From Eremomyces bilateralis CBS 781.70 (taxonomy: Eukaryota), in NCBI GenBank assembly GCA_010015585.1, contig ML975197.1: a stretch of DNA of 32,273 nt; one strand, given 5' to 3'. Below are positions 3,446 to 32,273 of the stretch, piece by piece. The position numbers and the translations under genes were made by a program. Position 1 is the stretch's first letter. Each line of letters starts with the position of its first letter. Under the pieces are notes generated by a model that was given only the letters and a program-made list of their open reading frames with translations, searched no databases and was not told the DNA's origin.

Positions 3446-3582
3446 CTCAGGCGGCAATGGTGCCCCCTGGCCATTATGGGGCTCCGCTATACCCAATGAA
3501 GCCCAGCCTCTTCTTTAGCACACGCCACTAAATATTGACCAATCATGCGCCTTGAAGGCAGAGGGCACCACTGCCGTCTGAG
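3446..3582. repeat. Inverted repeat with 24-bp arms, possible MITE-like relic
   Basis: 3446-3469 vs reverse complement of 3559-3582 match at 21/24; all mismatches are transitions. No clear TSD. Confidence 0.55.
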
Positions 3583-4137: not shown

Positions 4138-4189
4138 ACGCGTGGGAAGTTAAGGTGATCGGCAAGCAAACAAACGCGTCGCGACGCGT
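4138..4189. promoter_or_regulatory. Cluster of three ACGCGT (MCB-like) motifs, two forming a perfect 16-bp palindrome, upstream of LINE ORF1
   Basis: ACGCGT at 4138-4143 and ACGCGTCGCGACGCGT at 4174-4189. Function is inferred only. Confidence 0.35.
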
Positions 4190-4324
4190 CAAGAGCGCAC
4201 ACATCCAGCAACAGACGAGCATCACGAACCTACACGACTAGTGGCCATCATCTGTGGTAGCGACCACTGAAGCCCTATACCACACTACACGTAGGAACCC
4301 GGGCAATAGAAAGGACTACCAGGA

Positions 4325-8597: not shown

Positions 8598-8797
8598 TGT
8601 GAAGGATCGAAGATTGAATTCAGTCTGATGCCTTGGGGCCTTGGGATGTGGAGGCCTTACGGCCTCACGATGTGTTGTGGTCACCCCAAGGCCTACTGAA
8701 TATTTCCCCTCACACTTAGATCTCCCTTTCCCCTTTGTAGATTGATTCTAGTATATCACGAATCACAGAGTTTTGCCTCATTCTTCGTGCCCTGACA
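8598..8797 (+). repeat. 5' LTR, 200 bp, TGT...ACA
   Basis: Starts TGTGAAGG and ends CCTGACA. Matches 15017-15212 at 195/196 (T8614 vs C15033). Confidence 0.96.
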
Positions 8798-8798
8798 T

Positions 8799-8809
8799 AA
8801 TCAATCTAC
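8799..8809 (+). promoter_or_regulatory. Primer binding site complementary to the element's own LTR (self-priming type)
   Basis: AATCAATCTAC is the exact reverse complement of GTAGATTGATT at 8737-8747. Confidence 0.8.
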
Positions 8810-8930
8810 CTCCCCATAAAAGTTGAGGCTTCATCCGGAATCAGAAAAGACAAATCTGGCTAGACTGAACACAATCCTCGAGTCCGACGACTCACCCTCG
8901 GAGAATTACCCTACATTAAGAAGAGAACCC

Positions 8931-10715: not shown

Positions 10716-10750
10716 GAGCTCTCACTCACAGTCGCGAGTGGGAAGCGAAT
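10706..10750 (+). promoter_or_regulatory. -1 programmed ribosomal frameshift signal
   Basis: Slippery heptamer G GGA AAC at 10706-10712 directly before the gag TAG, a 7-nt spacer, then stem TCTCACTC/GAGTGGGA. The -1 frame is open into the protease. Confidence 0.8.
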
Positions 10751-13700: not shown

Positions 13701-14830
13701 TCGTCGTCGACAGACTCTCGAAAAAGAAGAAGTTCATCCAGATCAGATCGCTGGAAGTAGAAGACGTGGTCCAGGCATTTATTGAATATGTCTGGCGCGA
13801 GGAGGGATTCCCAAGGACTGTCGTCTCTGATAGAGGCAGTCAATTCGTCTCTCAGTTCTGGAAGAATCTCTGTAAGACCATTGGAGCGAAGCCGAAACTC
13901 TCTACCGCGCATCATCCAGAAACAGATGGACAGACTGAGTCAGCGAACGCTTCACTGAAACAGTTCCTGAGAACGTTTGTGAATTATAAGCAAAATGATT
14001 GGGTCACGTGGTTACCTATCGCCGAATTCGAATCAAACGCGTCACCGAATGCATCAACATCCGAATCACCTTTCGTACTCACCAAAGGTTACCTGCCACG
14101 CATGGGCATCGAAATGGACGAATCCCTCCGCACCTCTCAACCTGCCGTCAAGTTAGCTACGCAAATTCGTGACATTCAATTGAGAGTCCGGAAACAGCTA
14201 GAGTGGGCGCAAGCGCTGCAGAAGGAACACGCAGATAAACACAGACTGCCTGCTCCGCAGTTCAAAGTAGGTGATTGGGTCTACTTAGACACTCGGTACC
14301 TTAACTCAGCTCGACCTTCGAAATCACTCGATTTGAAGAACATTGGCCCGTTCCAGATTACTCGAGCGATCGATCACTTTGCTTATGAACTAGACCTCTC
14401 ATCGAACGCCCTCGAAGGAGTCCACCCTGTATTTCACCTATGGCTACTCCGACTCGATGACAGCAAGCCATTCGATGGCCAACGACCTCCAAGAGCAGAA
14501 GCCGAAAACCAAAATGACGACGGAACTCGGGCAGACTACGAAGTGAAAAAGGTAGTAGACTGTAGAATCGACAATAGAAGGAAGGACAAAGCGACAGGAT
14601 AGAAGGGCTGCATCATGTACCGAGTACAATATGAAGGATGGGACGCATGGAACGAAAAACCGAAATGGCAGCCATGGTGGGAACTCACGGGCGCGCCTGA
14701 TCGAGTGAGAGAATATCACGATGCACACAAGGACTCCCCTGCGTTATATCCATCTTTCTTCGACGAGGAAATTTGGCGTGACTTCGTCTACGCCCTTGCG
14801 ATTGATACGTTCCGACAATCGGAACAATGA
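10709..14830 (+). pseudogene. pol: Pol polyprotein (protease, RT, RNase H, integrase, chromodomain) with in-frame TAG at 11585-11587 and 14600-14602
   Basis: LFDTGGSG (protease); LRICIDYR and YLDDILIYS (RT); ETDASD and YDKELLAIV (RNase H); HHCC, ISVDFI, VSDRGSQF, TDGQTE and GPF (integrase); YEVKKVVD...YRVQYEGW...WQP (chromodomain). All in one frame. Confidence 0.94.
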
Positions 14831-15003
14831 GATGCGATGGACTGAAGCAGACGCTAGAACCGCTCTGCCGACCAAGGTACCGGCCTAGATGATAGCGGGA
14901 CACCTTCTCGACCACTCTGACGAGACGAGGCATCTAGACGAGGAGCTACTGAATAATCGTCTGGAGAGGCCTATCTCAAGACTCAGAGGACTTCGCGTGT
15001 TTT

Positions 15004-15016
15004 GAGGAGGGGGTAG
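15004..15016 (+). promoter_or_regulatory. Polypurine tract
   Basis: GAGGAGGGGGTAG directly before the 3' LTR. Confidence 0.85.
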
Positions 15017-15212
15017 TGTGAAGGATCGAAGACTGAATTCAGTCTGATGCCTTGGGGCCTTGGGATGTGGAGGCCTTACGGCCTCACGATGTGTTGTGGT
15101 CACCCCAAGGCCTACTGAATATTTCCCCTCACACTTAGATCTCCCTTTCCCCTTTGTAGATTGATTCTAGTATATCACGAATCACAGAGTTTTGCCTCAT
15201 TCTTCGTGCCCT
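15017..15212 (+). repeat. 3' LTR lacking its last 4 bp (GACA)
   Basis: Identity to the 5' LTR ends at ...GTGCCCT, followed by AAACTAAA. No target-site duplication of the left flank (ATATC). Confidence 0.93.
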
Positions 15213-15980
15213 AAACTAAATCGTGCAAAGAAGTGTTGGTAGACTTCTTTGGAGTTGTATGAGGGACAAAACCTCAGGGTTTAAATTTACAGAGTAGACT
15301 TCTTTGGAAGTTTGAGCCATAGAACACTTCCCTGAACATGGTTTAATTACTATAAAAACCGATACAAAAGAATCACACCTCTTACTTCTACCAGCTCTAT
15401 CAGTTTCTAGATAAAAAAACCAAAATTCTATGAGATATCGATGGTTGAAGTTGTTGGCGATTTTGATGGGGTAAGGTTAGCTAGGTGGCCATGTAACGGT
15501 ATGTAGGCCTCAGGCATTCAGGCCAACATCAGATATTAGCTCACACAACTGTCACGGTCGCACTTTTTCGTGCTTCAAGGCGTCGAGAGATTACTGCCTT
15601 ATAGCCTGACGATCACAGGACAGTCGCATGTATTGAGAGGTAAAAAGCAAATAACCACTGCGGCAAGAGACACATGTAGATCAGATTCCTCTTTCGTTTC
15701 TATTTCCTTTCCCTTTCTTTATCATTCGTTTCATTGAATGTAAGCTACTTTACCATCGTGATCCATCTCTATGGTCCTCTATAATAGCACTGTAACACAA
15801 AGTGAGTTAGATTTAGTTGCTTAGATCTATTGTAGATGAAAATATAGCTAATATAATCATAGTCGATCAAATCTAGAGTCGTTTTAATCCTGAATCCACC
15901 CGATCCCGAACCAAGCCGATCTAACCACACATAAGCCCCCAAACCGCTCTAAACCCGTCAATACAATCCTCACCAGTGAC

Positions 15981-18900
15981 ATGAATCCAGAGGCGTATTT
16001 CACCCGGATCCGTGAATATGGGTTAATTGTATGCAAAGAGTGTCGGTACTGCGTATGGCCACAGGATATCCGAGGCCATTTAAAGGGAGAACATCATAAA
16101 GCGAAGAAAGAGGTAGTCGATGCGATAGATACGGTCGTCCAACGATGGCGGGGATTAGTCCGGGATCCTATAGAGTTTCTAGTCCCCCAGGCGGTCGCTG
16201 AACCGTTCGAGGCGTTACCATTGTTCGAGGATGGGTTAATGTGTCGGTTACCGGTTAACAACGAATCTATCGATGTGGTATGTGGGAAGGTTTCCCGTAA
16301 CCGTAAGGCATTGATCACTCACTGGCGGACCGTCCACGATTGGACTATGACCAAGAAGCGAGGACAAGGACAGGGCGGTGGACAGACCAACGAGGGGAAA
16401 ATCGCTGTACAACGGCGATTTAACAACGCAGTCGAGAAGGTGTTATGCCAACGATTTTTCACAAGCCGCCATTGTTCACAGTATTTCCGCATCGCCCCAC
16501 GCATACCAGGGCAGATGCCCCAAGAGCGAATCGACTCGTGGAAACGCATTCAACAGATGGCGGAGGAGAAGTTCCAGGGGATCGAAAAGCGTATTCGAAC
16601 AAATATTGAGGCTGGGGAGAAGGATGAGCCGAATCCATGGTTAGCGTGCAGTGGATGGCACAAGTATTTAGGCGATTTAGACCGGGAGGATCTGATGGCG
16701 TCGGTGGCGAAGCCTGGCGATGGTGGGAAGGATGCCGACCCATTAGAGCAAGTCGTATGGAAGGCTATGACCGATGTTGTCCGGATCAGCCAAGAAACGG
16801 TATCGAAAACCGGCATGTTCATCCGGTTGGAAGCTGTTCGGACAGAGGAGCATCAGACGAAATATGTGCCGTTAGAGATCTATTGGGATCCAGATTCCAT
16901 CGACCGACGAGCACAGCCATGGAGACAGATATTGATGTTTTTCATCCGAACCCAAAAACAGCACGAATGGGAGAGTCCAGCGTACAAGTTCACCCAGGCG
17001 CAGATGCAGGCGTTTGTCCGGTTAATAGCGGAGGCCGAGAAAGTACAGGACGAAACGGAGGAGAGAGAAGAGGACGACAACGACGACGACGACGACAACG
17101 ACGACGACGAACCACGTCCTGACAAGAGCGACGAGTTCCCTACGATGACACCCGTTCAAACAGCATGCTTAGAGTTTTGCATCCAGTTATTGAACCACAA
17201 AGTCATGCGGAACGAGTACGAAAGTGCGTTGGTATGCGTATTAGCTGTATTGGGCGTTAATGGCGACACATGGAGGGATCCGGAGACATATCCACCTATC
17301 CTGTCGTCTATCATCAAGTGTGCTCGGTTTATGGTTATCCAGAAAGCTGTGAATATGGCCGGTCCCCCAGACGAGCCAGATGGATATCGACAAGGGTCGG
17401 TTATCGATTTCGAGGGTAGTAATAGCGAGTACGAAAGCGGCAACCGGTCCCCATCCCTAGGAGCATCCCCAGCGGCATCCCTAGGAACATCCCCACCCGA
17501 AAGGTCGTCCCAGACATCCCCTAAAACCGCAATATTCCCATGGTCTAGCCCACCCGTTCGGTTAGTCCGATCGAGCCGCCAATCAGACGAGCCGGACTGT
17601 TTAGAATGGGTTAACCGGATGATGGATGGGTTCATGGTTCGCGGTAGCAAAAGTCCTATGCAATGGATGTTGAATTTGCGCACGTATGGGCTGAAGATCC
17701 ATTATAACACAACCGCTCGCGGCCATGTGGAGTGGAACGATGGCGAGACGTTACTGTACAAGGGCACTCAGTTCAGTATGGCCCAGTTCCGCGGTATGAT
17801 CCACGGAATACTGTTCGAGACGCGCCAAATCATGGCTGAATTATTATTTTGTACTGACGGAGTGGGAGACATGCCCATCGTCCCATGGGAGCTATTGCGC
17901 GACGACCCGACCAATGGACGCCCCGGATGGAACTTTTTACAGGACCAACGGACTCGATTCCCTGTGAATGGAGAGACATGGCTGTTTGACCGAATTGGTA
18001 AGCACGAGGCAATGCGGCGGGAATTTGAGCGACCTGATAGCGAGAGCGGTGTCCGCCGGAAGGGAGTGAACGATTATATGACCAAGCTGTCACGGTTTCG
18101 CGAGAAGTTGCTAGTATTGATGCACATTACTGGCGGACAGCCTGCAAGAGGGACTGAGCTATTGAGCATTCGACATCAGAATACCGCTAAAGGGGCCCAT
18201 CGGAACGTTTTCATTGAGGACGGTATGGTCGTGTTTGTAACCCAATACCACAAGGGATACGCTATTAGTGGCAACGTCAAGATTATCCATCGGTATGTGC
18301 CACGGGAGGTCGGCGAGTTGGTGGTCCGGTATTTGTGGTTGGTATTACCGTTCCAGCAGCGCATGCAGTCGTTGATCGATGGCCATATCCCGTCCCCAGC
18401 CCATATGTGGCCTAAGCAGCAGTATCGGCAGTCGTGGACGTCGGAACGGATGGCCACGGTATTGCGGCGCGAGACGGAGATCGGATTGGGGCATCGAATA
18501 GGCATTATGGATTACCGGAACGTTGCTATTGGGATTAGTCGACGATTCATGCGCGCGCCGACTGCGTTCCAGCAAGACGACGAGGAAACTCCCGATCCTG
18601 AGCAAGCCGAGGCAGAGATTGCGGATCTACAGGCAGGCCATTCCACGCATGTGGCTGGAATGGTGTATTCCCGCGGTATCATAGAGATGGCCGGCGCGGT
18701 AGCCGACACACGGATGCGGTTCCGAGGATCTAGCGTCGATTGGCATCGGTTTTTGGGTTTCGAGAGCGCCCAGGAGCCGAGAGGGAGCTCTAAACGACGG
18801 TGCCTATTCGAAGACGACGCTAACGAGGCGCGGTTCGAGCGATGGGCGCGAATACGGAGGATGAACGCCGCCGAGCAGTTCCAGCGTATGATGGGGAGGG

Positions 18901-20774
18901 AGGCTACGTTCCGGGGGGTCCAACAGGAAGCCATCGAGGCGATTCAAGCCGGGGTTAGCCCCGTAATATCGATCATGCCCACCGGGTCTGGCAAGTCGGT
19001 ATTATTTATGTTACCAGCATGGGTCGAGCCGGGAGGGACGACCATTATCGTTGTACCATTGGTCGCATTGCGCAAGGACATGAAACGACGATGCAAGAAG
19101 CTAGGGATCGGATGCGCCGAATGGAACGGTCGTAGGCCACCCGATGCCGAAAGCATTGTGCTGGTGACGCCAGAGTCGGCCGTGTCCGGGGAATTCCAGA
19201 CGTTCATTAACCGGTTGAAAGCGACGAGGCGGTTAGATCGGATCGTGATCGACGAGTGCCACGTCATATTGAACGATCAAACTGGTTTCCGGCCCATATT
19301 GCAAAGGTTAGGGTCGTTAGTAGCCGCCGAGACGCAGATGGTGCTATTGACGGCCACGTTGCCACCTAGCAAGGAGAGGGTACTACGGGAGCGTATGCAT
19401 TGGCAGGACGAAGGCGTCGTGATTCGAATGCCCACCGTCCGGACGAATATCCGGTATTCAGTGGCTTCAGTAGACCCCCGGGCTAGGCAGGAGGACCAGG
19501 ACGCCGTGATCGAAGCGTTGGTGGACCAGGAGGACGGTAAGGTGGTGGTATATTGTAATTCCCGATCCCGGGTCGAGCGGTTAGCACGAAGCGGGTTAGG
19601 CGTCTGCGAGGCGTTCCATGCGGGTTTACCAGACAAGAAAAAGGCGGAGGTTTTAGAGGAATTTCGTACTGGAGAGATCCGCATCGTCGTGGCTACTAGT
19701 GCGTTAGGGATAGGGGTCGATATTCCCGATATCCGGCTAATTATTCATGCCGATGTGCCACGGAATTTGATAGATTTCGCACAGGAAAGCGGACGAGCGG
19801 GACGGGACGGACAGCCCAGTCGATCGATCGTTGTCGGGAATTCCAGTAAGGATGAGTTAGTGCAGCGGTTTTTACGAAGTGATGGAGGGTGTCGGCGGAT
19901 AGTGCTCGACGAGTACTTAGATGGGCACCAGGGGCGACGTAGATGTGAAGGAGCGGAGGCATGCGATTTATGTCGGCCCGGTCATCAATCCATAGACGGC
20001 GAATCGGTAGAGGCGTTAAGCGAGACAATCGATGCATTCGAAGAGTCCAATGCGTTGGGAGAGCCGGGACATGTTCAAGGATCGAGAGAAGTCGACGTGG
20101 GAGAGGAAGAACGACCTATAAACGAACATGATCCCCCAGACGGCGAATCGACGGACGACGACGAATCGACGGATGACGACGAATCGATAGATAGCGAATC
20201 AACGGAGGAAGCCAATTTCGCGATACAATTCGATCAGCAGCAGAGGGAGTTAGCAGCGATCCGCCGACGAGCGGTCCAGGCACGACAGGACGAGGCACTA
20301 GGAGTGGATGAATTGCAACAGCGATTGGACGAATGGCTGGGCGTATGTGTGGTATGTCGCAGGCACGATCACGTCGTTACGGCATGTCCACAGGTCGAAG
20401 CACAGGAGGCACGAGTAGAGATCGACCGGCGACGAACCAGAATCCGATACGCGGCATATTCGTGTTGTTTCCAGTGCGGGGTAGCGCAGGCACTATGCGA
20501 GCGGTATACGGCGGATGAAAACGGACGATGGAGGACGACGGGGAAGAGGTGTCAGTATTTTGGAGTGGTCAAGGCGGTGGTTTGGGGGCTACGGTGGATC
20601 GATCCAGGGGTATACCAGGAGTGGATATCGCGGTTAGACGGGTTCGGCGTTAGCATTAGTTCCGAAGTAGCTATTGACGAGTATTTAGCGAGGCGCGAAT
20701 ACAAGAGCGGGATTGAAGGGGGGAGTTTGATGTGGGAGTTTGGCTGGATTGCGGGGCGGTTAGCAGGTCGATAG
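15981..20774 (+). CDS. TLH: Telomere-linked RecQ-family helicase (TLH-like), 1597 aa: N-terminal Zn-finger region, central putative tyrosine-recombinase domain, RecQ core, C-terminal Cys clusters
   Basis: Single uninterrupted ORF. FRGVQQEAI (motif 0), MPTGSGKS (I), VIDECH (II), LTAT (III), ATSALGIGVD (V), QESGRAGRDG (VI), CRR...CDLC Zn site. N-terminal CKEC...HLKGEHH and C...C...HWRTVH...QRFF (DUF3505-like from recall). Confidence 0.9.
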   Translation: MNPEAYFTRIREYGLIVCKECRYCVWPQDIRGHLKGEHHKAKKEVVDAIDTVVQRWRGLVRDPIEFLVPQAVAEPFEALPLFEDGLMCRLPVNNESIDVVCGKVSRNRKALITHWRTVHDWTMTKKRGQGQGGGQTNEGKIAVQRRFNNAVEKVLCQRFFTSRHCSQYFRIAPRIPGQMPQERIDSWKRIQQMAEEKFQGIEKRIRTNIEAGEKDEPNPWLACSGWHKYLGDLDREDLMASVAKPGDGGKDADPLEQVVWKAMTDVVRISQETVSKTGMFIRLEAVRTEEHQTKYVPLEIYWDPDSIDRRAQPWRQILMFFIRTQKQHEWESPAYKFTQAQMQAFVRLIAEAEKVQDETEEREEDDNDDDDDNDDDEPRPDKSDEFPTMTPVQTACLEFCIQLLNHKVMRNEYESALVCVLAVLGVNGDTWRDPETYPPILSSIIKCARFMVIQKAVNMAGPPDEPDGYRQGSVIDFEGSNSEYESGNRSPSLGASPAASLGTSPPERSSQTSPKTAIFPWSSPPVRLVRSSRQSDEPDCLEWVNRMMDGFMVRGSKSPMQWMLNLRTYGLKIHYNTTARGHVEWNDGETLLYKGTQFSMAQFRGMIHGILFETRQIMAELLFCTDGVGDMPIVPWELLRDDPTNGRPGWNFLQDQRTRFPVNGETWLFDRIGKHEAMRREFERPDSESGVRRKGVNDYMTKLSRFREKLLVLMHITGGQPARGTELLSIRHQNTAKGAHRNVFIEDGMVVFVTQYHKGYAISGNVKIIHRYVPREVGELVVRYLWLVLPFQQRMQSLIDGHIPSPAHMWPKQQYRQSWTSERMATVLRRETEIGLGHRIGIMDYRNVAIGISRRFMRAPTAFQQDDEETPDPEQAEAEIADLQAGHSTHVAGMVYSRGIIEMAGAVADTRMRFRGSSVDWHRFLGFESAQEPRGSSKRRCLFEDDANEARFERWARIRRMNAAEQFQRMMGREATFRGVQQEAIEAIQAGVSPVISIMPTGSGKSVLFMLPAWVEPGGTTIIVVPLVALRKDMKRRCKKLGIGCAEWNGRRPPDAESIVLVTPESAVSGEFQTFINRLKATRRLDRIVIDECHVILNDQTGFRPILQRLGSLVAAETQMVLLTATLPPSKERVLRERMHWQDEGVVIRMPTVRTNIRYSVASVDPRARQEDQDAVIEALVDQEDGKVVVYCNSRSRVERLARSGLGVCEAFHAGLPDKKKAEVLEEFRTGEIRIVVATSALGIGVDIPDIRLIIHADVPRNLIDFAQESGRAGRDGQPSRSIVVGNSSKDELVQRFLRSDGGCRRIVLDEYLDGHQGRRRCEGAEACDLCRPGHQSIDGESVEALSETIDAFEESNALGEPGHVQGSREVDVGEEERPINEHDPPDGESTDDDESTDDDESIDSESTEEANFAIQFDQQQRELAAIRRRAVQARQDEALGVDELQQRLDEWLGVCVVCRRHDHVVTACPQVEAQEARVEIDRRRTRIRYAAYSCCFQCGVAQALCERYTADENGRWRTTGKRCQYFGVVKAVVWGLRWIDPGVYQEWISRLDGFGVSISSEVAIDEYLARREYKSGIEGGSLMWEFGWIAGRLAGR

Positions 20775-20864
20775 GAAGATCAATCCAATGATTTTTAGCG
20801 AAGACGATTAGCGACCTAGTAATAAGTAATGATTTATATATGGAGCGACTTCAGTCGATATCAG

Positions 20865-23570
20865 GAGTTATAGAAGGTCAGACGAAGTAGTAAGACGAAG
20901 GGGCAAGACCATACACGCAAGACCAAGAAACAAGATGAAGAGGTAAGATGAAGAACACGATAAAAGAGCAGGACCACGCAGCAAGACCACGCATTAAGGC
21001 GAAGAATCAAGACGAAGGAGCAAGACGATGCAGCAAGACGACGCAGCAAGACGAAGAAGTAAGACCATACAGAAAGACGACGGAGCAAGACGAAGGAGTA
21101 CGACCACGCAGCAAGACGAAGGAGCAAGATGAAGGCACAAGACGAAGGAGCAAGACGAATAAGTAAGACGACGCAACAAGACGATGTAGCAAGACGAAAG
21201 GGCAAGGCGGCGCAGCAAGACGAGGAAATAAGACGAAGAAGCAAGACGAGGACGCAAGACTATAGAGCAAGACGACGCAGTAAGACGAAGGAGCCAGATG
21301 AAGAAGCCAGACGAAGGAGCGAGAATATAGAATAAGACGACGCAGCGAGACGATACAGCGAGACGAAGGGAGATGAATTGAGACGAAGACGTAAGACGAC
21401 AGAGCGAGAGGAAGGAACAAAACCACGGAGTAAGACGAAGAAGCAGGACAATGGAGCAAGACAAAGCCAGACAATAGAGCAAGACAAAGCCAGACGAATA
21501 AGTAAGGCAACGCAGCAAGACGAAGGAGCAAGACGATAGAGTAAGACGATGGGGCAAGACGATAGAGGAAGACAATAGAGTAAGACGAAGAAGTAAGATA
21601 AAGACGTAAGACAAAGAAGTAAGACGAAGGAGTACGACGATGCAGTAAGGCGAAGAGGCAAGACCACGCATTAAGACGAAGAAGCAAGACGAAGAAGCAA
21701 GACGAAGAAGCAAGGCGAAGAAGCAAGACGAAGAAGCAAGACGAAGAAGCAAGACGAAGAAGCAAGACGAAGAAGCAAGACGACACAGCAAGACGAAGAA
21801 GTAAGACTACACAGGAAGACGAAGGAGCAAGACGAAAGAGTACGACTACACGGTAAGACTAAGGAGTAAGATGAAGGTACAAGACGAAGGAGCAAGACGA
21901 ATAAGTAAGACGACGCTACAAGATGACACAGCTGGACGACGCCATAAGACGACGCAGCTAGACGACGCAGCAAGACGATAAAGATAAAGCCAGACGAAGG
22001 AACTAGACGAAGGAGCTAGGCGAATAAGTAAGGCGACGCAGCAAGACGAAGGAGCAAGACCATAGAGTAAGGCGACGCTATAAGACGATGCAGCGAGACG
22101 AAGGAGCAAGACGACGCAGCAAGAAGAAGAAGTAAGACCACACAGAAAGACGAAGGAGCAAGACGAAGGAGCAAGACGAAGAAGCAAGACGAATAAGTAA
22201 GACGACGCAATAAGACAAAATGGCAAGGCGGCGTAGCAAGACGAGGAAGCAAGACGAAGGAGCAAGACGAGGACGCAAGACCATAGAGCAAGACCATAGA
22301 GCAAGACGACCCAGTAAGACGAAAGAGCCAGATGAAGAAGCAAGATGATAGAGCAAGACGATGGAGCAAGACAATGGAGAAGGACGATGGAGTAAGACGA
22401 TGGAGCAGGATGATGGAGCAAGACGATGGAGGAAGACGATAGAGCAAGATGATGGAGCAAGACGATGGAGGAAGATGATGGAGCAAGACGATGAAGGAAG
22501 ACGATGGAGCAAGATAATGGAGAAGGACGATGGAGCAAGACTATGGAGCAAGACGATGGAGCAGGATGATGGAGCAAGACGATAGAGCAAGACGAAGAAG
22601 CAAGGCCACCCAGGAAGACGAAGGAGCAAGACGATGGAGCAAGATGATGGAGCAAGACGAAGAAGCAAGATGAAGAGGTAAGACAAAGAAGCAAGACGAA
22701 GGAGTACGACGACACAGCAAGGCGAAGAAGCAATACCACGCAGCAAGACGACGCAGTAAGACAAAGGAGCCAGATGAAGGAGCAAGATTACCCAACACGA
22801 TAGAGGAGCAAGATCACGCAGCAGGACCACGCAGCAACGCCACGTATTAAGACGAAGAAACAAGACGAAGGAGCAAGGCGACGCAGCCAGACGATGGAGC
22901 ACGATGACGCAGTAAGACGAAGAAGCAGGACCACGCAGGAGGACGAAGGAGCAAGACGAAGAAGCAGGACGATGGAGCAAAACAAAGCCAGACGATGGAG
23001 CAAGACAAAGCCAGACGATGGAGCTAGACGAAGGAGCCAGTCGAATAAGTAAGGCGACGCAGCAAGACGAAGGAGCAAGACCATAGAGTAAGACGACGCT
23101 ACAAGACGATGCAGCGAGACGAAGGAGCAAGACCATAGAGTAAGACGACGCTACAAGACGATGCAGCGAGACGAAGGAGCAAGGCGACGCAGCAAGACGA
23201 AGGAGGAAGACGAAAGAGCAAGACCATAGAGTAAGGCGACGNNNNNNNNNNNNNNNNNNNNNNNNNNNNNNNNNNNNNNNNNNNNNNNNNNNNNNNNNNN
23301 NCAGCGAGACGAAGGAGCAAGGCGACGCAGCAAGACGAAGGAGGAAGACGAAAGAGCAAGACCATAGAGTAAGGCGACGTAGCAAGATGATACAGCGAGA
23401 CGAAGAAGCAAGACCATAGAGTAAGGCAACGCAGCAAGACGATGCAGCGAGACGAAGGAACAAGACCGTAGAGCACGACGCCGCAACAAGACGATACAAC
23501 AAGACAAATGAGCAAGACGACGCAGCACGATGATAGAGCCAAATGAAGGGTCCAGACGAAGGAGCAAGAA
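20865..23570. repeat. 13-bp variant minisatellite array, consensus about GANNNAGYAAGAC, roughly 200 units
   Basis: Variants GAAGAAGCAAGAC (homogeneous run ~21678-21781), GATGGAGCAAGAC (~22350-22650), GAAGGAGCAAGAC, GACGCAGCAAGAC, CATAGAGYAAGAC, GAATAAGTAAGAC. Assembly gap 23242-23301. Confidence 0.92.
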
Positions 23571-23659
23571 TTTCAGGAGGATAGGGAGTAAGGGAGGAGT
23601 GCGGTTGTGAAGGCTGCGAAGTTGTAGGGAGGAATTTGCCATGTTGGTGGATTGCGGCA

Positions 23660-25040
23660 ATTGGAAGAGATCAGGCGACGATGGCGATAATGCGACGAGA
23701 TGAAGGGAAGATAGACGGCCACAACGAACAAGTTAAGAGTTACAATTTACACAAAACAAAAGATTAGCATCCGCAGAAGGACGTGGAAAGGTACCAAATA
23801 TTTAGCAGAGGCTGGGGAATTGGTGATTGGTGGTAAAGGTGGCGGCATAGTAGGAGAGATGGCAACAATGCGACGAGACCCAGGGAAGATAGACAGCTAC
23901 AACGAACGAGTTAAGAGTTGTAATTTGCATAAGTCGAATAGATAGCATCCGCATAAGGCCATGGAAAGGCACCAAATGTTCGTTAGAGGCTGAGGGAGTG
24001 GTGATTGGTGGCAAAGGTAGTATAGTGGTGGGAGAGATAGTAACAAGACGACGAGATGAAAGGAACGTGGATAGCCACAACGAACGACTTAAGAGCTATA
24101 ATTTACATGAAACGAAAGATTGGCATCCCGATAATGCCATAGAAAGGTGTAGAATGTTTATTCAAGTGTGAAGCGCTGGTGGTTGGCGGCAAAGGTGGCG
24201 GCGTGGTAGGAGAGATGGCAGCAAGACGGCAAGGCAAGGGAGCATAGACAGCCACAACGAACGAGTTAAGAGGTATGATAGGTATGAAACAAAAGGTTAG
24301 CATCCGCACAAGGACGTGGTAAGGTATCAAATGTTTAGTAGAAGCTGGGGAATTGGTGATTGGTGGCAAAGATGGCGGCATAGTGGGAGAGACGGCAACA
24401 ATGCAACGAGATCAAGGGAAGATGGATAGCCACAATGAACGAGTTAAGAGTTATAATTAGTATAAAATAAAAATATAGCATCCGACCAAGAGCATAGATA
24501 AGCACCAAATTTTTATTAGAGGCCGAGGAGTTGGTGGTGCGTAGGAAAAGATGGTAATATAGAGAGAGACATGGCAGTAATACAAGTTCAAAGGAAGATG
24601 CACAGCCACAACGAACGAGTTAAGAGTTACAATAAGCATAAAACGAAAGGTCAGCATCCGAACATGGCCATAGAAAGGTGCATAATGTTTATTAGAGGCT
24701 GAAGGATTGGTGGTTGGTGGTAAGGGTAGTAGCATGGTAGGAGAGATGGCGACAAGACGACGAGATCGAGGGAAGATGGACAGCCACGACGACAAGATCA
24801 AGGGAATATGGACAGCCACAACGACGAGATCGAGGGAAGATGGACAGCCANNNNNNNNNNNNNNNNNNNNNNNNNNNNNNNNNNNNNNNNNNNNNNNNNN
24901 NNNNNNNNNNNNNNNNNNNNACGACGAGATCGAGGGAAGATGGACAGCCACGACGACGAGATCGAGGGAAGATGGACATCCACGACGACGAGATCGAGGG
25001 AAGATGGACAGCCACAACGAACGAGTTAAGAGTTACAAGA
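23660..25040. repeat. ~178-bp tandem repeat (about 7 diverged units) with an amplified 32-bp subunit in the last unit
   Basis: ACAACGAACGAGTTAAGAG-like core at 23721, 23899, 24077, 24254, 24432, 24608 and 25014. 32-bp CGACGACGAGATCGAGGGAAGATGGACAGCCA repeats at ~24755-25014 (gap 24851-24920). Confidence 0.92.
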
Positions 25041-28000
25041 AGGGAAGAAGAGGGAGAAGTTAGAGGGAGAATTAAGAATAAAGAATGGAGAAAGGCGATA
25101 AATAATGAGACGGAGGAATAAAGTAGAAGTAGGAAGTAGGAAGTAAGAACGAGAAAGGGAAAATGTGGATAGAAGAGTAAAGGAAGAGGGGAGGAGGAGA
25201 AAAGGAGGAATAGAGTAGGAGAAAGTATATAGGAAGAGAGGGAACGGGGGAAGGAAGTAGGAGAGAGAGGTAAAAAGTAGGAAAGAAGATGGAAGAAGGA
25301 GGAGGAGAAAGGGAGAAGGAGAAGGGGAGAAGGAGAAGGAGAGAAGGAGAAGGAGAAAGGGAGAAGGAGAGAAGGAGAAGGAGAAAGGGAGAAGGAGAGA
25401 AGGAGAAGGGGAGAAGGAGAAGGAGAGAAGGAGTAGGAGAAAAGGAGAAGGAGAAGGGGAGAAGGAGAAGGAGAGAAGGAGTAGGAGAAAAGGAGAAGGA
25501 GAGAAGGAGAAGGAGAAAGGGAGAGGGAGAGAAGGGGAATGGTAGAAGGAGAAGGAGAGAAGGAGTAGGAGAAAGGGAGAAGGAGAAAAGGAGAAGGAGA
25601 AAGGGAGAATGGTAGAAGGAGAAGGAGAGAAGGAGAAGGAGAAAGGGAGAATGGTAGAAGGAGAAGGAGAGAAGGAGAAGGAGAAAGGGAGAAGGAGAAA
25701 GAAGGAGAAGGAAGGGAGAAGGAGAAAGGGAGAAGGAGAAGGAAGGGAGAAGGAGGTAGGATAAAGTAAAAAGTAAAAAGGGAGAAGCACGGAGGGAAGA
25801 AGGGAGAAAAGAGAAGGAGGAAGTAGTAGGAAGGGAAGAGGACGTAGCAGGAAGGGAGAAGGAAGTAGGATAAAGTAAAAAGTAAAAAGGCAGAAGTAGG
25901 AAGTAGGAAGGAAGGAATAAAGGAAGAAGCTAGAAGTAGGAAGAGACGTAGCGAAGAGGTAAGAAGGGAGAAACAGGTAGTAGGAATTAAGAAGAAAGAA
26001 AGCGTGTGGTATGTTAATGGGAGAGGTATAGTAGAAAGCATATGGTGTATTGAAGGAAGCATATAGAAGAAGGCGTATGGTGTATTAAAGGAAGTGTGTT
26101 AAGGGAAGCGTGTGGATGGAAGTGTGCAATGGATTGAGAGAAGCGTGTAATGAATTGAAGGAAGCGTATAATGAATTGAAGGAAGCGTGTGGTGTATTGA
26201 GGGAAGCGTTTGGTGTATTAATAGGAAGCGTATAATGGATTGAAGGGTTTTATAGAGGGAAAGAGAAAGGAGAGAAGTGGGGAGAGAGAAGTAGAAAGAT
26301 AAGAAGAGGGGAGGAAGAGGGGAGAAGGGGAAGGAGAAGTAAGAGGGTTGTATAAGGAGAGTAGAAGGAGAAAAGTGAAGGAAGTAAGAGGGTTGTATGA
26401 GGAGAGGAGAAGGGAGAAAAGAGAAGGAGAAGAAAGGAGGAGAAGAATAAAAGATGGAAGGTATGAAAGAGAGGAAGAACGAAAGAGGGATGAATAAGAA
26501 GAAGGAAAAAGAGAAAGAGGGGAGGAATGAGAAGAGTATAATAGATAGGAAGAGTATGATGGATGGGAGAAGCATAATAGATGGGAGGAGTATGATGGAT
26601 AGGAGGAGTATAATGAATAGGAGGAGAATAATCAATGGAAGAGTATGATAGATTAAAGGCTTTAATAGATAGGAGGAGTGTAATTAATGGGAAGAGTATA
26701 TGGGATAGGACGAGTATATAGATTGAAAGGTTTAATAGATAGAAGGGAGGAAGGAGAGGAGAAGTAAAAGGTAGGAGGAATGAGAAGGAGGAATGAGAAG
26801 GAGGAATAAGAAGGAGGAATGAGAAGGAGGAATAAGAAGGAGGAATAAGAAGAAGGAAAGTGGAAAGGAGAAGGGAGAAGTAAAAAGGAGACGTGGGGTG
26901 AAAAAAGAGAGCAGTAAGAAGAAGAAGTGGGAAAGATGTGTATATTAATGATAGGAGTATGATGAATAGGAATGGATAGGAGTATGATTAATAGGAAGGG
27001 TATAATGGATGTGAAGTGTATAATGGGTATGAAGAGCGTTGTAATGGGAGAAGTGAGAAGGAGGAGTTAAGAAGGGAGAGTAGGAGGAAGTAGGAAGGTA
27101 GAGAGGAAAAGGGAGGGATAAGAAGGGATAAGAAGGGATAAGAAGGGATAAGAAGGGATAAGAAGGGATGAGAAATGAGATAGAAGAAATGAGGTAGAGA
27201 AATGGGAAGTGGGAAGGGAAGTAAAAGAGGAGAGGAATGAGAAGAAGGAAAAGGAGAAGAGAAAGAAGAGGGAAGTAAGAAGTGGAAAGGAGAAGGGAGT
27301 GTGTATAAATGGGAGGGTATGGTAGATATATTGAGAGAAGAAGGAGGAATGAAGTTGGAGGGGTTATAGGAGGTAGAAAGAAGTAAAAAGGGAGATAAGA
27401 AGGGAGGAAGAGAGGGAGAAGAGAAGGAGGAAGAGAGGAGAAGAGAAGGGAGGAAGAGAGGAGAAGAGAAGGGAGGAAGAGAGGAGAAGAGAAGGGAGGA
27501 AGAGAGGAGAAGAGAAGGGANNNNNNNNNNAGGAGAAGAGAAGGGAGGAAGAGAGGAGAAGAGAAGGGAGGAAGAGAGGAGAAGAGAAGGGAGGAAGAGA
27601 GGAGAAGAGAAGGGAGGAAGAGAGGGAGAAGTGGGAAGGTAGGGAGATAGGAGAGGTGAGGAGATGGGAAGGAGATAAGATAGAAGAGGTGAAGAAATGA
27701 GAAGGAAGTAAGAAGGAAGAAGGGAGAGAGTGATCGAAGAAGAGAAAGGAGATAGAAAAGGGGAAATAGAAGTATAAGAAGGGGAAGTAAGAGGGAGAAG
27801 TAAGATAGAAAAAGTGAGAATAAGGAAGAAGGAAGAAGGAAGGAAGAAGTAGAAATAGGAGGAAGAGGAATAAAGTGAGAGGAAGAGAGGAGAAAAGAGA
27901 AGGAAGTGGAATAAAGGAGAAGAAATAGAATAGGAGGAATAAAGGAGAAGGAATAGGAAGGGGGAGAAAGAGAGAACGGAAAGAAGGAGTAAGAGAGAAA

Positions 28001-31000
28001 GGAAAGAAGGAGTAAAAGAGTGGAGGAAGAGGGAGAAATAGGAATAGAATAGGAAGGGGAGGAAAGAGAGAAAGGAAGAGAGGAAAAGTAAAATAGAGAA
28101 GTAGGAAGAAAAGGAGGAAGAAAAGAAGAAGAGAGGGAAGAGAGATAGAGAAAAGGAGAAGTAAGAAGGGGAAGTAAGAGGGAAAGTAAAGGAGAAGAGA
28201 GAATAGAGAAGGAGAAGAGAGGATAAAGAAGGAGAAGAGAGAATGAAGAGGGAGAAGAGAGAATGCAGTAGCAGAGAGAATGAAGGAGAAGAGAGAATGA
28301 AGAAGAAGAGGGAATGAAGAAGGAGAAGTAAGAAGAAGAGGGAATAAAGAAGGAGAAGTAAGAAGAAGAGGGAATGAAGAAGGAGGAGGAAAGGGAGGAA
28401 GAGTAGAGAAGGAGGGAAGAGGAGGGAAGTAGAAGGAAAAGTAGAGAAGGAGGGAAGAAGAGGGAAGGAGGAGGAAAAGTAGAGAAGGAGGAAGGAAGAA
28501 GAGGGAAGGAGGAGGAAAGGGAGGAGATGTAAGAGGGTGGGGGAAGAAAGAAAAGGAGAAAATGAGAAAGAGAAGAGAGAAAAGAGATAGAAGGGGAAGT
28601 AAGAGGGAGAAGTGTGATAGAAGTGTGATAGAAGAAGTGTAAATAAGGAAGTAGGAAGAAGGGGGAGAAAGAGAAAGAAAGGAAGGAGTAAAAGAGTAGA
28701 GGAAGAGGGAGAAGTAGGGAGAAAGGATGAGGAATAGAATAAGCGGAATAAAGGAGGGAGGAAATAGGAAGGGGAGAAAAGAGAGAAAGGAAGAAAGAAA
28801 GAGTTGAATAGAGAAGTAAGAAGGAAGGGAGGAAGGGAAGGAGAAGGAGAAGGGAAAGGGAGAGATGGGAAGAAGAAGGGAAAGGGAGAGATGGGAAGAA
28901 GAAGGGAAAGGGAGAGATGGGAAGAAGAAGGGAAAGGGAGAGATGGGAAGAAGAAGGAAAAGGGAGAGATGGGAAGAAGAAGGGAATGGGAGAGATGGGA
29001 AGAAGAAGGAGAAGGGAATGGGAGAGATGGGAAGAAGAAGGAGAAGGAAAAGGGAGAGATGGGAAGAAGAAGGAGAATGAAAAGGGAGAGATGGGAAGAA
29101 GAAGGAGAAGTAAGAGGGGAAAGTAAGAGGAGAAGAAAAGAGAAGAGTGAATGAAGAAGGAGAAGTAAGAAGAAGAGAGAAATAGAAGAGAGGAAAAGGA
29201 GAAGGGAGAAGGAAATTTTGGATAGAAAGTATATTATGAATTGGAAGAGTATTATAGATTGAGGAAAGATATTATAGGATGGATTGTAGGATTGGGGAAG
29301 AAGAGAGGAATTGTATTAGTAGAAGAGTTAATAGGTTGATATATTATATGATTGTAGGATTTAAGGAAGAGGGAGGAATAAGTAGTAGGTAAAGGAGAGG
29401 AGGGAGGAAGAGTAAGAAAGGGAGAGGAAGAGGAAGAAAGAGGGAGGAAGAGGAAGAAAGGGAGTAGAAGGGTAAGAAAGGGAGGAGAAGGGTAAGAAAG
29501 TGAGATGAAGAGGAAGAAGAGGGAAAGGAGGGGGAATTGAGAAGGAGAAGTAGGATAAGAGGGAGAATGGTAAAGGTAAAGGATAAGGGAATAGTATATT
29601 AATGAAAGAATATGGGTTGTAAGTATAGGATTGAGGTGGAGGAGTAGTTTAGATTGAAGGGATTTGGAGAGAGGAGGTGTATTAGAGATTGAAGGGATTA
29701 GAAGAGGGAAGTATATTATGGAGGTTGTTGGGAAGTATATAAAGGATAGTAGAAAGAGAAGTATATATTTAATGGGAGGTAGTTAAGGAGTAATGGGAAG
29801 TATAGAAGGTAGAAATAAAGAAGGAAGTAGATTATAAATTGTAAGGAAGTATATGGAGGATAGATAGGAAGTATATGAAGAAGAAAGGGGTTATATAGGG
29901 ATTATAAGAGGGAAGTAAGAAAAAGAGAAAATAAGTTGGGAATAAAGGAAGAATTATAGGAAGTAGAGATTGGGAAGGAAGTAGTATAGGAAGTAGAGAT
30001 TGGGAAGGAAGTAGTATAGNNNNNNNNNNTATAGGAAGTAGAGATTGGGAAGGAAGTAGTATAGGAAGTAGAGATTGGGAAGGAAGTAGTATAGAGGGAA
30101 GTATAGAGTGTAATAATAGAGAGGATAGTAATAGAAAGAAGAGGTTGTAGGTTGTATATTGGGGGGGGTATGTGGAGTGTTAAAGAAGTATGTTAATAGA
30201 AGGGAATGGAGTAATAGGTTGTATGTGGTGTATTAGATAAGGGTACGGGATGATAGAAAGAGGAGAATGAAAAGGATAGAGAGGATTAATAGAAAGAGGG
30301 ATGGATGTTAAGGAGAAGTGTATAGTATATGAGAGAAAAGTGTATAGAATATGAGGAAAGGGTAGAAAGGTATAAGGTGTTAATAGAAAGTAGGTAAAGT
30401 GTTGGAGTTTGGTATAAAAGAGTATGGTATAAAAGAGAATGGGAGGGAAAGTGGTTAATATTAGAGGGAAGTATATGTTGTATGAATAGAGAGGATATTA
30501 ATAGAGAGGGTAGAAGGAATATTAATAGAGGGAATAGAAGAGTATAGGAGGTAAATAGAAGAGTATATGATAGAAGGGTATAGGATAGAAGAGTATAAGA
30601 TATTGATAGAAAGAGTGTAGTATAGAAAGTAAAGAGTATAATAATAGAAAGTGGATAGTATATTATTAGGAAAGTATAGGTTGAGGATTAATAGAGAGAG
30701 TTGTATAGGAGAGGGAAGTATAATATATTAAAGGGAAAGGGTATGTTATGTTAATAGAGAGGATAGAAGATGTTAATAGAAAGGAGATTAAAGAAAGGGT
30801 AGAGGGGTATTAATAGAAAGAGTATAGGATATTAGAAGAAAGAGTAGAGGATATTAGAAGAAAGAGTAGAGGATATTAGAAGAAAGAGTAGAGGATATTA
30901 GAAGAAAGAGTAGAGGATATNNNNNNNNNNNNNNNNNNNNNNNNNNNNNNNNNNNNNNNNNNNNNNNNNNNNNNNNNNNNNNNNNNNNNNNNNNNNNNNN

Positions 31001-32273
31001 NNNNNNNNNNNNNNNNNNNNNNNNNNNNNNNNNNNNNNNNNNNNNNNNNNNNNNNNNNNNNNNNNNNNNNNNNNNNNNNNNNNNNNNNNNNNNNNNNNNN
31101 NNNNNNNNNNNNNNNNNNNNNNNNNNNNNNNNNNNNNNNNNNNNNNNNNNNNNNNNNNNNNNNNNNNNNNNNNNNNNNNNNNNNNNNNNNNNNNNNNNNN
31201 NNNNNNNNNNNNNNNNNNNNNNNNNNNNNNNNNNNNNNNNNNNNNNNNNNNNNNNNNNNNNNNNNNNNNNNNNNNNNNNNNNNNNNNNNNNNNNNNNNNN
31301 NNNNNNNNNNNNNNNNNNNNNNNNNNNNNNNNNNNNNNNNAGGATATTAGAAGAAAGAGTAGAGGATATTAGAAGAAAGAGTAGAGGATATTAGAAGAAA
31401 GAGTAGAGGATATTAGAAGAAAGAGTAGAGGATATTAAAAGAAAAGAAGTAGTATGTTAATGGAAGAGGGTAGAATATAGGAGGGAAAGTGTAGTGTAGA
31501 AGAGGAAAGTATAGTAGAGGAAGAAAAGTAGAGTAGAGGAGAAAAGGATATGATATATTAGAGGAAAGGATAGAGTGTATTAATAGAGAGGATAGTAATA
31601 GAAAGGAGAAGTTGTAGGTTGGATATTAGAGAGAAGTATGTGGAGTGTTAGAGAGAAGTATATAATAAATGATTAGGAAGTGTGTAGAGTGTGAATAGAA
31701 GTATTTTAATAGAATGGAAGAAAGTAGAGTAAAAGGTTGGATATGTGTATTGAAGAGAAGTGTAAGTATGTTAAAGATGTTGTAGAGGTAGTATGTGGTG
31801 TAATAAAGAGAAGTGAAATATTAGGAGAGATTAGAGGTAGTATAGAGGGTGTTAATAGGAGGATATTAATAGAAAGGAAGTGGTATATTAGATAAGTTTA
31901 TTGGATGAATAGGAGTATATTAGTAGAAGGAAGTGGTTGTTATAATAAGTGTATAGGATGAATAGGAGTATATTAATGGAAGGAAGTGGTTGTTGTGATA
32001 AGTGTATAGGATGAATAAGAGTATATTAATGGAAGGAAGTGGTTGTTGTGATAAGTGTATAGGATGAATAGAAGTACATTAATAGAAGGAAGTGGTATAT
32101 TAGATAAGTATATAGGATGAATAGAAGTATATTAATAGAAGGAAGTGATATATTAGATAAGTATATAGGATGTTAATAGAAAGGGTAGAATGAAAAGGAT
32201 ATAGAGGATTGATAGAAGGGTAGAATGAAAAGGATATAGAGGATTGATTGAAGGGTAGAATGAAAAGGATATA
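25040..32273. repeat. Purine-rich, C-depleted low-complexity domain made of many short tandem arrays (probable distal subtelomere)
   Basis: GGAGAA variants 25290-25760; 21-bp ~26100-26245; 18-bp ~26530-26650; 10-bp AGAAGGGATA ~27111-27170; 23-bp ~27410-27630; 26-bp ~28852-29100; 30-bp ~29955-30093; 22-bp ~30826-31440; 53-bp ~31875-32170; 35-bp 32181-32273. N gaps fall within the arrays. Confidence 0.9.

Follow-up and report, generated by a model that had tools for sequence, protein, structure and literature searches.

A Telomere-Linked-Helicase-Type Gene with a Cytosine-Poor Repeat Tail beside a Transposon Nest in Eremomyces bilateralis

Introduction

More than two decades have passed since telomere-linked helicase (TLH) genes were recognized at the chromosome ends of fungi, and to our knowledge no mechanism has been assigned to them. 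Here, we describe a gene of this type, with its associated repeats, in a stretch of 32,273 nucleotides from Eremomyces bilateralis CBS 781.70 (GenBank assembly GCA_010015585.1, contig ML975197.1), the whole of which is referred to below as the window. In Magnaporthe oryzae, as described in the part of the source available, TLH genes are flanked by tandem helicase-associated repeats (HARs), and the distance from gene to telomere reaches 5.5 kb; the HAR-H and HAR-I units are G-rich and C-poor, with a single C among 25 letters in the former and 3 among 48 in the latter, and a strand bias is not remarked on in that part (PMC1635262). The accessible text on Fusarium oxysporum places TLH genes in TLH-containing regions (TLHcr), units of 6-13 kb at most chromosome ends, with 22-43 nearly identical copies in each strain and telomere repeats on both sides of them; TLH proteins are described there as having two N-terminal C2H2 motifs and a TLH domain of ~250 aa before a RecQ helicase, encoded by open reading frames (ORFs) of ~4.7 kb (bioRxiv 10.1101/2024.02.27.582403). 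The Y' elements of Saccharomyces cerevisiae and tlh1/tlh2 of fission yeast are likewise telomere-adjacent helicase genes, amplified or induced upon telomerase failure; they were compared by description, and the portions of the descriptions consulted make no mention of a recombinase-type domain.

The locus in the window resembles the M. oryzae TLH region, as far as the available part of that source describes it, in having a RecQ-type helicase gene, tandem repeat blocks, kilobase-scale repeats and surroundings crowded with transposons (PMC1635262). It differs in two respects, both taken from the same partial description: M. oryzae carries 11 near-identical copies at 11 ends with an inner boundary defined by repeats, whereas the window holds one version of the leader, abutting a long terminal repeat (LTR); and the repeat tail described here measures no less than 11.4 kb and is essentially free of cytosine, against a maximum of 5.5 kb in M. 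oryzae, the two being compared by description. With the TLHcr of F. oxysporum, to the extent that the accessible text covers them, it shares an ORF length of ~4.7 kb and a protein layout that combines C2H2 motifs and a TLH domain with a RecQ helicase (bioRxiv 10.1101/2024.02.27.582403). Unlike them, the window is without flanking telomere repeats or identical copies.

Positions 15213-32273 of the window are probably the inner part of a TLH-type subtelomere of a filamentous ascomycete, in which a transcribed gene is followed by helicase-associated repeats and the left edge was produced by a rearrangement at an LTR. The locus is one more TLH end beside a transposon nest, and terminal, multicopy or self-mobile status is not demonstrated for it. 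Two points of general bearing outweigh the locus itself, namely the predicted fold of the TLH domain with its candidate active site, and the absence of cytosine from one strand in many lineages.

The Helicase Protein and Its Family

The gene occupies the plus strand of the window and encodes a protein with the following parts.

15981..20774, + strand: telomere-linked-helicase-type gene, intact, 1597 aa (ORF and translation)
15999..16337, + strand: paired C2H2-type zinc-finger domain (Pfam OrsD, PF12013), aa 7-119 (E 2.7e-18)
17706..18761, + strand: TLH domain, aa 576-927, with a tyrosine-recombinase/topoisomerase-IB fold in the model; no Pfam match
18918..19811, + strand: RecQ-type superfamily 2 helicase core, with DEAD at aa 980-1131 and Helicase_C at aa 1175-1277
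20346..20387, + strand: C-x2-C-x4-H-x4-C zinc-knuckle-like motif, aa 1456-1469, seen in the translation; no Pfam match

An earlier sequence-only reading of the window had announced one intact large gene, and the open frame of 1597 aa at 15981-20774 bears this out. The helicase core is matched by PF00270 (E 9.7e-21) and PF00271 (E 6e-22). Residues C18, C21, H33, C88, C101, H114 and H119 at the N-terminus were found to be invariant among 33 sequences, as were C1456, C1459, H1464 and C1469 near the C-terminus; the spacing of the latter group is that of a motif which we take to be of the retroviral zinc-knuckle type. A strongly conserved block spans aa 690-930, at the position expected for a TLH domain just before the helicase. 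Among 8000 candidates scored, 278 homologues were obtained at E <= 0.001, and the best of these has 48% identity over 100% of the length and the same Pfam domains. The named sources include Alternaria, Didymella, Pyrenophora, Plenodomus, Hortaea, a lichen fungus and Aspergillus, in which the proteins are called RecQ helicases. The protein appears to be of the TLH type, its length and domain order fitting published TLH proteins, to which it is likened by description. The proposal of the sequence-only reading that this is a telomere-linked helicase gene with associated repeats is thereby upheld by the architecture, by the homologues and by an orientation that is the same as in relatives ending in (TTAGGG)n.

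The base composition of the gene changes along its length. Over six consecutive segments, the share of purines at fourfold-degenerate sites is 0.60, 0.61, 0.53, 0.60, 0.66 and 0.76, and in the last sixth these sites hold A, G, C and T at 0.36, 0.40, 0.17 and 0.07, respectively. The purine richness of the sense strand at fourfold sites was thus seen to climb toward the 3' end of the gene, over 19176-20774.

Related Loci and the Link to Telomeres

A comparison set of 77 related loci (671,454 bases), taken from metagenome contigs and designated here by L numbers, was used to place the gene relative to the chromosome end. Runs of at least three TTAGGG units were found in 7 of the 77 loci, always at the downstream end, in sense orientation and 1.2 to 3.8 kb past the stop codon, while the set of 77 was found to contain no CCCTAA runs. 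In each of the 7 loci that end in telomere repeats, the cytosine content declines toward the telomere. The family appears from these contigs to be telomere-linked, with a gene that reads toward the chromosome end, as in Magnaporthe.

Tracts poor in cytosine, defined as at least 400 bp with no more than 3% C per 200 bp, amount to 40,124 bases in 22 of the loci and are confined to the sense strand on the downstream side of the gene; the equivalent tracts poor in G, A or T amount to 0 bases in the same set. When the 50 loci with at least 500 bp of downstream sequence were scored in bins of 250 bp, 26 had a bin with <=3% C (17 of 30 clusters at 88% identity) and none had a bin with <=3% G, and in the upstream control a C-poor bin was encountered in 1 of 39. 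As the tracts concern C only, the sense strand only and the downstream side only, the composition of the tail is more than a matter of chance. Between tails of different lineages, only low-complexity matches of ~65% and telomere repeats are held in common, which suggests that the composition of the tail, and not its sequence, is conserved between lineages. This regularity, seen in 17 of the 30 lineages with enough flank, bears on RIP (repeat-induced point mutation), methylation, R-loops and end resection at chromosome ends. We found no literature stating the absence of cytosine from one strand between a TLH gene and the telomere, subscription journals having lain outside the search.

Several arrangements within the set are of interest in their own right. 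Diverged helicase genes stand head to tail in L021 (2616-7650 and 10001-14638) and in L053 (642-5034, 5030-9421 and 10001-16147). Positions 1-290 of L030 form a C-free, degenerate telomere-like tract with a GGGTTAG-type ending, situated 6.5 kb upstream of the gene and in the same orientation, so that in this locus a unit seems to have been joined on beyond a former chromosome end. In the upstream regions of 39 loci (139,622 nt), telomere-like 8-mers number 32 in sense orientation and 9 in the other and cluster 180-800 nt before the start codon; none occurs in the leader of the window.

The Repeat Tail

Downstream of the gene, the window is made up of successive repeat blocks.

20880..23527, + strand: 13-bp minisatellite (consensus AGACGAAGGAGCA), ~200 units, 18% C
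23680..25036, + strand: 178-bp array followed by a 32-bp array, the 32-bp unit being derived from the start of the 178-bp unit
25037..32273, + strand: mosaic of short purine-rich arrays, nearly C-free, reaching the window end with no telomere

The 13-bp repeat was called over 20880-23224 (181 copies, 70% matches) and continues to 23527; the 178-bp repeat covers 23680-24792 with 6.3 copies and the 32-bp repeat 24756-25025, and dozens of GA-rich arrays then follow as far as 32273. The more than 11 kb of ordered 13-bp, 178-bp, 32-bp and GA-rich arrays, purine-rich on the sense strand, that the sequence-only reading had described are therefore all present at the positions it gave, with a total of 11.4 kb. 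Tandem repeats cover 75% of 20775-32273, and arrays were found downstream of the gene only, with none upstream. On the plus strand, the 13-bp array contains 44% A, 32% G, 18% C and 6% T, and the DNA beyond 25037 contains 43-48% A, 32-42% G, 11-25% T and 0.1-1.3% C; 46 cytosines remain in 25001-32273, 8 of them after 27000. The drop in C from 14% to 2% at 25037 is abrupt and falls on a block boundary.

No telomere repeat was detected in the window on either side of the gene. Since similar tracts in the relatives reach (TTAGGG)n, a telomere most likely lies beyond the window end, with the tail, by analogy, leading to it past 32273. An origin of the tail from degenerate telomere sequence was considered and rejected, as TTAGGGTTAGGG, when up to 3 mismatches are allowed, was counted 18 times, with an expectation of 23.3.

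Runs of N lie inside regular arrays at 23242-23301, 24851-24920, 27521-27530, 30020-30029 and 30921-31340, with lengths that are multiples of ten, and a 22-bp array keeps its register across the run of 420 N. The pyrimidine-rich minus strand shows ORFs of 156-474 aa over 20994-26635 that are not genes; such frames stay open because stop codons need purines.

Loss of Cytosine from One Strand

Repeats of ascomycetes degraded by RIP are characterized by an excess of TpA, a loss of CpA/TpG and a divergence of paralogues dominated by transitions, and the locus shares these features. Ordinary RIP, however, leaves DNA that is AT-rich, with C and G lost on both strands, whereas here one strand keeps 32-42% G and loses its C, a difference which may be ascribed to a starting sequence that was already polypurine. 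With the usual cut-offs for RIP-type sequence (TpA/ApT > 0.89 and (CpA+TpG)/(ApC+GpT) < 1.03), the distal tail of the window, at 1.17-1.31 and 0.61-0.81, falls within the RIP range; the 13-bp array is borderline (1.02 and 0.96) and the 178-bp array falls outside it (0.88 and 1.17). Among the relatives, the long tails of L010, L030, L006, L040, L016, L017 and L066 have an observed/expected TpG of 0.01-0.18 and a TpA/ApT of 1.45-2.41, and would represent RIP taken to exhaustion.

The variants within the 13-bp array indicate how a single strand could be affected. Per consensus base, C>T amounts to 14.7%, G>A to 11.6% and A>G to 4.4%, and a CpA site is altered about twice as often as a CpG site. 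In this array, 87% of the cytosines of the plus strand stand in CpA/CpG and 70% of those of the minus strand in CpT/CpC; in the C-free part, CpG is gone and 82-93% of the remaining cytosines of the minus strand are in CpT/CpC. The share of pyrimidines is meanwhile roughly constant, with 24% C+T in the proximal tail and 11-25% T in the distal tail. In the mechanism proposed, the cytosines of the polypurine strand would sit almost only in CpA and CpG, the targets of RIP-like and methyl-C deamination, those of the complementary strand would sit in CpT and CpC and survive, and repeated rounds of deamination would strip C from one strand only. The one-sidedness of the loss would accordingly be a consequence of the dinucleotide context of the polypurine repeat, and we infer that context-dependent, RIP-like deamination of such a repeat best explains the loss of cytosine.

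Two observations do not fit readily with this account. The tails of L021 and L025 are C-free without a RIP signature (TpG 1.21, TpA/ApT 0.95), and the purine bias at fourfold sites rises in the last third of the gene, which deamination does not account for. The primary polypurine bias would appear to stay outside the deamination account; strand-specific deamination of single-stranded DNA, or selection for DNA prone to form R-loops or triplexes, is possible.

The proposal that the C-free strand records strand-specific damage was weighed against the context-dependent account. According to it, the strand that ends 3' at the telomere would repeatedly become single-stranded, through resection, break-induced replication or R-loops arising from telomere-directed transcription, and its C would be converted to T. 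The C-free strand does always run 5' to 3' toward the telomere, with a cytosine content that drops on the approach to it, the tails of L021 and L025 lack the signature of RIP, and GC skew is reported, in the part of the source consulted, together with RNA:DNA hybrids at human subtelomeres (PMC5286223). Deamination alone, though, raises T, and yet T is low, at 6% in the 13-bp array and 7% at the fourfold sites in the final sixth of the gene; cytosine drops at 25037 from 14% to 2% in one step, at a block boundary, with no smooth gradient; G>A is nearly as common as C>T in the 13-bp array; and the RNA contig ends at 20802, which is a weak point against the proposal. We therefore consider strand-specific damage rather unlikely, and context-dependent deamination of the polypurine repeat is retained as the preferred explanation.

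Alignment of the near-identical tails of L010, L030 and L040 gave 38 A/G, 58 A/T, 30 G/T, 1 C/T and 1 A/C differences, with repeat units that misalign and many indels.

Fold of the TLH Domain

The sequence-only reading had called the gene a recombinase-helicase. An AlphaFold model of aa 530-965 was built with 37 homologues (mean predicted local distance difference test, pLDDT, 71.7; predicted template modeling score, pTM, 0.72) and compared with 48,161 representative chains in a wide VIA-align search. The top match was XerA (4a8e; Z 10.3, root-mean-square deviation 3.5, 164 residues aligned), followed among others by XerH (Z 8.8), XerD (8.6 and 8.4), Cre (8.2) and bacterial topoisomerase IB (8.0). 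Ranks 1-24, with Z from 10.3 to 5.0, all belong to the tyrosine recombinase/topoisomerase IB superfamily, Ndc10 included, and the Crypton-derived QRICH1 reached Z 4.5. Foldseek against the PDB listed Cre, XerH, XerA, Flp, topoisomerase IB and a protelomerase as its best rows, but weakly, with a best E of 0.012 (Cre) and no row at E <= 0.001; because of these weak E-values, the claim of a fold is drawn from the VIA-align search. The TLH domain, as modelled, has a tyrosine-recombinase/type IB topoisomerase fold.

Searches by sequence returned little. With the TLH-domain fragment, neither the PDB sequence search nor Pfam gave any match at E <= 10, and no Pfam match to Phage_integrase, DUF3435 or DUF3504 was obtained with the protein (E <= 0.01) or the domain (E <= 10). 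A protein atlas yielded only weak leads at 0.85, a cluster with 17% Phage_integrase and NDC10_II. The fragment itself retrieved 3631 cluster representatives at E <= 0.001 and 459 at E <= 1e-30, from which the TLH domain is seen to be widespread.

Just 15 columns are invariant in an alignment of 32 sequences with 32-48% identity, and among them are R723, K758, R846, H887 and Y896 (R194, K229, R317, H358 and Y367 of the fragment), which are invariant in two alignments. These five residues fit what we take to be the motifs of the superfamily, namely G-x-R-x-x-E-L, a beta-hairpin Lys, an Arg and G-H-x(8)-Y, and the spacing of R..K..R..H..Y is presumably XerD-like. We infer that R723, K758, R846, H887 and Y896 are the candidate catalytic set. 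Weighing against this assignment are the facts that the residues were assigned by motif spacing and conservation rather than by superposition, that the second Arg is not preceded, three residues earlier, by the His of a typical H-x-x-R motif, and that model confidence is low at the Tyr segment (pLDDT 30-42).

The predicted fold of the catalytic domain is thus shared with Xer, Cre, phage integrases, the Crypton and Starship "captain" enzymes and Ndc10, while the protein is unlike classic tyrosine recombinases in being fused to a RecQ helicase, in having no Pfam family for this domain and in the lack of transposon terminal repeats or target duplications. With Cryptons, the fold is held in common, but the window shows no DUF3504 match and, within the contigs, no multicopy unit. 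Of the name recombinase-helicase, then, the fold and the conserved candidate residues speak for the first element, and the match to the Starship captain family did not materialize. The further likeness to Starships that the sequence-only reading had drawn is not borne out: DUF3435 is not matched, the unit comprises a single gene with no cargo, and its left edge is the end of an LTR. In a survey of Cryptons, the word "helicase" occurs 0 times (PMC3212892). We found no literature linking TLH to tyrosine recombinases, subscription papers, including one that defines the TLH domain, having lain outside the search.

A recombinase-type fold with an invariant candidate site would provide a concrete assay and a single-residue mutant for TLH genes. 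It is conceivable, albeit as a long shot, that TLH proteins are active recombinase/topoisomerase-helicase fusions, originating from a Crypton-like element, that cut and rejoin DNA at chromosome ends and thereby copy or graft the unit of their own gene and its tail onto ends that are eroded or broken, with the strand-asymmetric, C-free polypurine tail serving as a cis-acting substrate or being a footprint of the process. Were this true, an entire class of fungal subtelomeres would have to be seen as an end-repair transposon, either domesticated or semi-selfish.

The Left Junction

The helicase block is preceded immediately by a retrotransposon, itself in or beside another.

4325-8597: long interspersed nuclear element (LINE) with endonuclease and reverse transcriptase (RT), cut inside the RNase H motif at the 5' LTR
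8598-15212: Ty3/gypsy element with gag, protease, RT-RNaseH-integrase and two 98%-identical LTRs, no target-site duplication
8598..8797, + strand: 5' LTR of the Ty3/gypsy element, TG...CA, ~200 bp, in or beside the LINE
15017..15212, + strand: 3' LTR of the Ty3/gypsy element, last 4 nt missing; its end is the sharp junction of the sequence-only reading

The 5' LTR is a direct repeat of 15017-15219 with 98% identity. The identity between the two LTRs runs from TGTGAAGG to ...CCCT, after which the 5' copy reads GACA; in the LTR alignment, 15212 is the last matching base and 15213 the first unrelated one. Other genomic copies of the LTR also have GACA past the point homologous to 15212 (X1 and X3 contigs, two each, agreement 0.67). 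As the 5' LTR and these other copies continue with GACA, the LTR is of the TG...CA form and its 3' copy is 4 nt short. The 5-bp target-site duplication was not found around the Ty3/gypsy element, where the flanks read ATATC and AAACT, and a resumption of the LINE after 15212 was ruled out, the frame that is cut at the 5' LTR finding no match there. From the differing 5-nt flanks and the failure of the LINE frame to resume, it follows that the sequences on either side of the retrotransposon are not a matching pair.

A misassembly had been named as one way in which the junction might prove false. Short-read contigs of X1 (15183-16638) and X2 (15199-16638) both start within the LTR and cross 15212/15213 with zero differences; the X1 contig has 30 letters to the left of the junction, one under the 31-letter rule for a bridge, and X1 and X2 may be the same sample as the assembly of the window. 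The sharpness of the left junction is accordingly confirmed, with an abrupt change exactly at 15213, and its interpretation as the terminus of an element is not, the edge being the end of a truncated Ty3/gypsy LTR. Judged from these alignments, the edge at 15213 appears to be a rearrangement breakpoint at an LTR end, and neither an end made by an integrase nor the terminus of a cassette. It may have arisen by a deletion, by an LTR-LTR exchange or by a broken chromosome capturing a TLH end.

Leader, Transcript and Gene Copies

Between the LTR and the start codon lies a leader, for which the features below were recognized together with the 3' end of the transcript.

15213-15980, + strand: leader, 768 bp
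15213..15670, + strand: upstream non-transcribed leader (promoter region); X3 depth is 0.93 over 15380-15609 and the X3 contig begins at 15671
15239-15253 and 15294-15308, + strand: two exact 15-nt direct repeats beginning GTAGACT
15671..15980, + strand: 5' untranslated region (UTR) with a 61-nt GT..AG intron (15802-15862), from the X3 contig
20775..20802, + strand: short 3' UTR, from the stop of the X3 contig, a weak hint of the mRNA end

The leader of about 770 bp that the sequence-only reading had given is thus 768 bp long. Run X3 was taken as RNA from its behaviour, that is, from the lack of cover over the promoter, a spliced contig and an end at 20802. In its spliced contig, which extends to 17947, position 15801 is joined to 15863; a second X3 contig stops at 20802, whereas the DNA contigs of X1 and X2 extend ~290 nt beyond 20880. 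The helicase gene is transcribed and its 5' UTR is spliced.

Paired GTAGACT repeats were observed 5' of the helicase gene in three separate lineages, with the window joined by L005 (-359/-335 from the start codon) and by L021, L022 and L062 (about -336/-320); they perhaps act in the promoter or bind a protein.

Over 15380-16529, the summed depth is that of a single exact contig alone (283 in X1 and 178.6 in X2), contig depth being no copy number. Neither a second copy of the leader at >=90% likeness nor another left flank at 15213 was found in the contigs of X1 and X2. Over 16530-18139, depth is two to six times as high, and the extra contigs there are diverged partial copies of the gene, with differences that are mostly transitions (in X1, C>T 42, G>A 42, T>C 26 and A>G 20) and few transversions. 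The genome contains diverged, RIP-like partial copies of the gene and one version of the start of the unit.

Reading of the Locus

The interpretation of 15213-32273 as the inner part of a TLH-type subtelomere draws on the architecture of the protein, the transcribed gene, the polar repeats and the related loci that end in telomere repeats. A number of findings tell against it. Membership of the TLH type is judged from layout, with the named TLH proteins of Magnaporthe and fission yeast likened by description; the window has neither a telomere repeat nor an enrichment of telomere-like 12-mers, so that its terminal location is a presumed one; short-read contigs back the tail only to ~21170, ~290 nt into the 13-bp array. 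In the wider family, internal copies with normal DNA downstream are encountered (L027/L069, L032, L015 and L039), and in others a short C-poor stretch gives way to ordinary DNA (L033/L034, L037, L048/L049 and L054).

The main competing interpretation, that of the sequence-only reading, was of a self-propagating cassette that grafts onto new ends by a single crossover. In its fuller form, the locus would be a mobile, semi-autonomous unit that encodes the tyrosine-recombinase-helicase by which it is grafted onto chromosome ends, with a 5' terminus near 15213 and no need of a target-site duplication. The predicted recombinase fold with its invariant candidate active site is in keeping with such a unit, and so are the stacked or tandem units of L021 and L053, the older C-free telomere-like tract beneath the unit in L030 and the sense bias (32 vs 9) of the telomere-like 8-mers upstream. 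Short-read contigs of the relatives, furthermore, often stop 0.46-1.08 kb before the start codon, as they would at the edge of a repeated unit (L002, L004, L005, L011, L013, L016, L017, L024, L028, L047, L066, L074, L075 and L077), and published TLH-containing regions occur, according to the accessible portion of the preprint, in arrays with telomere repeats on both sides (bioRxiv 10.1101/2024.02.27.582403). The contig starts of the relatives, however, were seen to share no terminal motif, and terminal inverted repeats are lacking. In the window, the boundary of the supposed unit coincides with the end of an LTR, the only exact contig over 15380-16529 starts inside that LTR, and 15213 has no alternative left flank; Pfam gives no match to Phage_integrase, DUF3435 or DUF3504. 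TLH regions in other fungi have spread among chromosome ends by homologous recombination or break-induced replication, and with homologous recombination already explaining their spread, the enzyme is not required. The many copies with a common 5' boundary near 15213 that had been anticipated were not seen, the leader being present in the contigs in a single version, with this LTR as its sole left neighbour; a single copy had been named in advance as the finding that would count against the cassette, and a single leader version is what lies within reach of the contigs. Nothing here shows a cassette that propagates itself by a single crossover, and we regard the mobile unit as improbable, the TLH-type subtelomere with an edge formed by LTR rearrangement being the reading adopted.

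That the distal tail at 25037-32273 is an artefact of long-read assembly or base calling at a contig end is most improbable, for although it stands at the window end, is of low complexity, contains N runs and lies outside the cover of short-read contigs, tails of the same kind and up to 9 kb long follow homologous genes in independent short-read metagenome assemblies, 7 loci link the gene to telomere repeats, and the arrays are internally structured, with units that are 89-100% identical.

Other Features of the Window

An Rfam scan of the window gave no family at the gathering score. To the left of the LINE, the following were noted.

1-981: ORF with a 99-bp repeat; no Pfam family, ankyrin-repeat origin not confirmed
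1408-2802: Tc1/mariner-type transposase (DDE_3)

Together with the LINE and the Ty3/gypsy element, these belong to a transposon nest that fills 1-15212 of the window, to the left of the helicase block.

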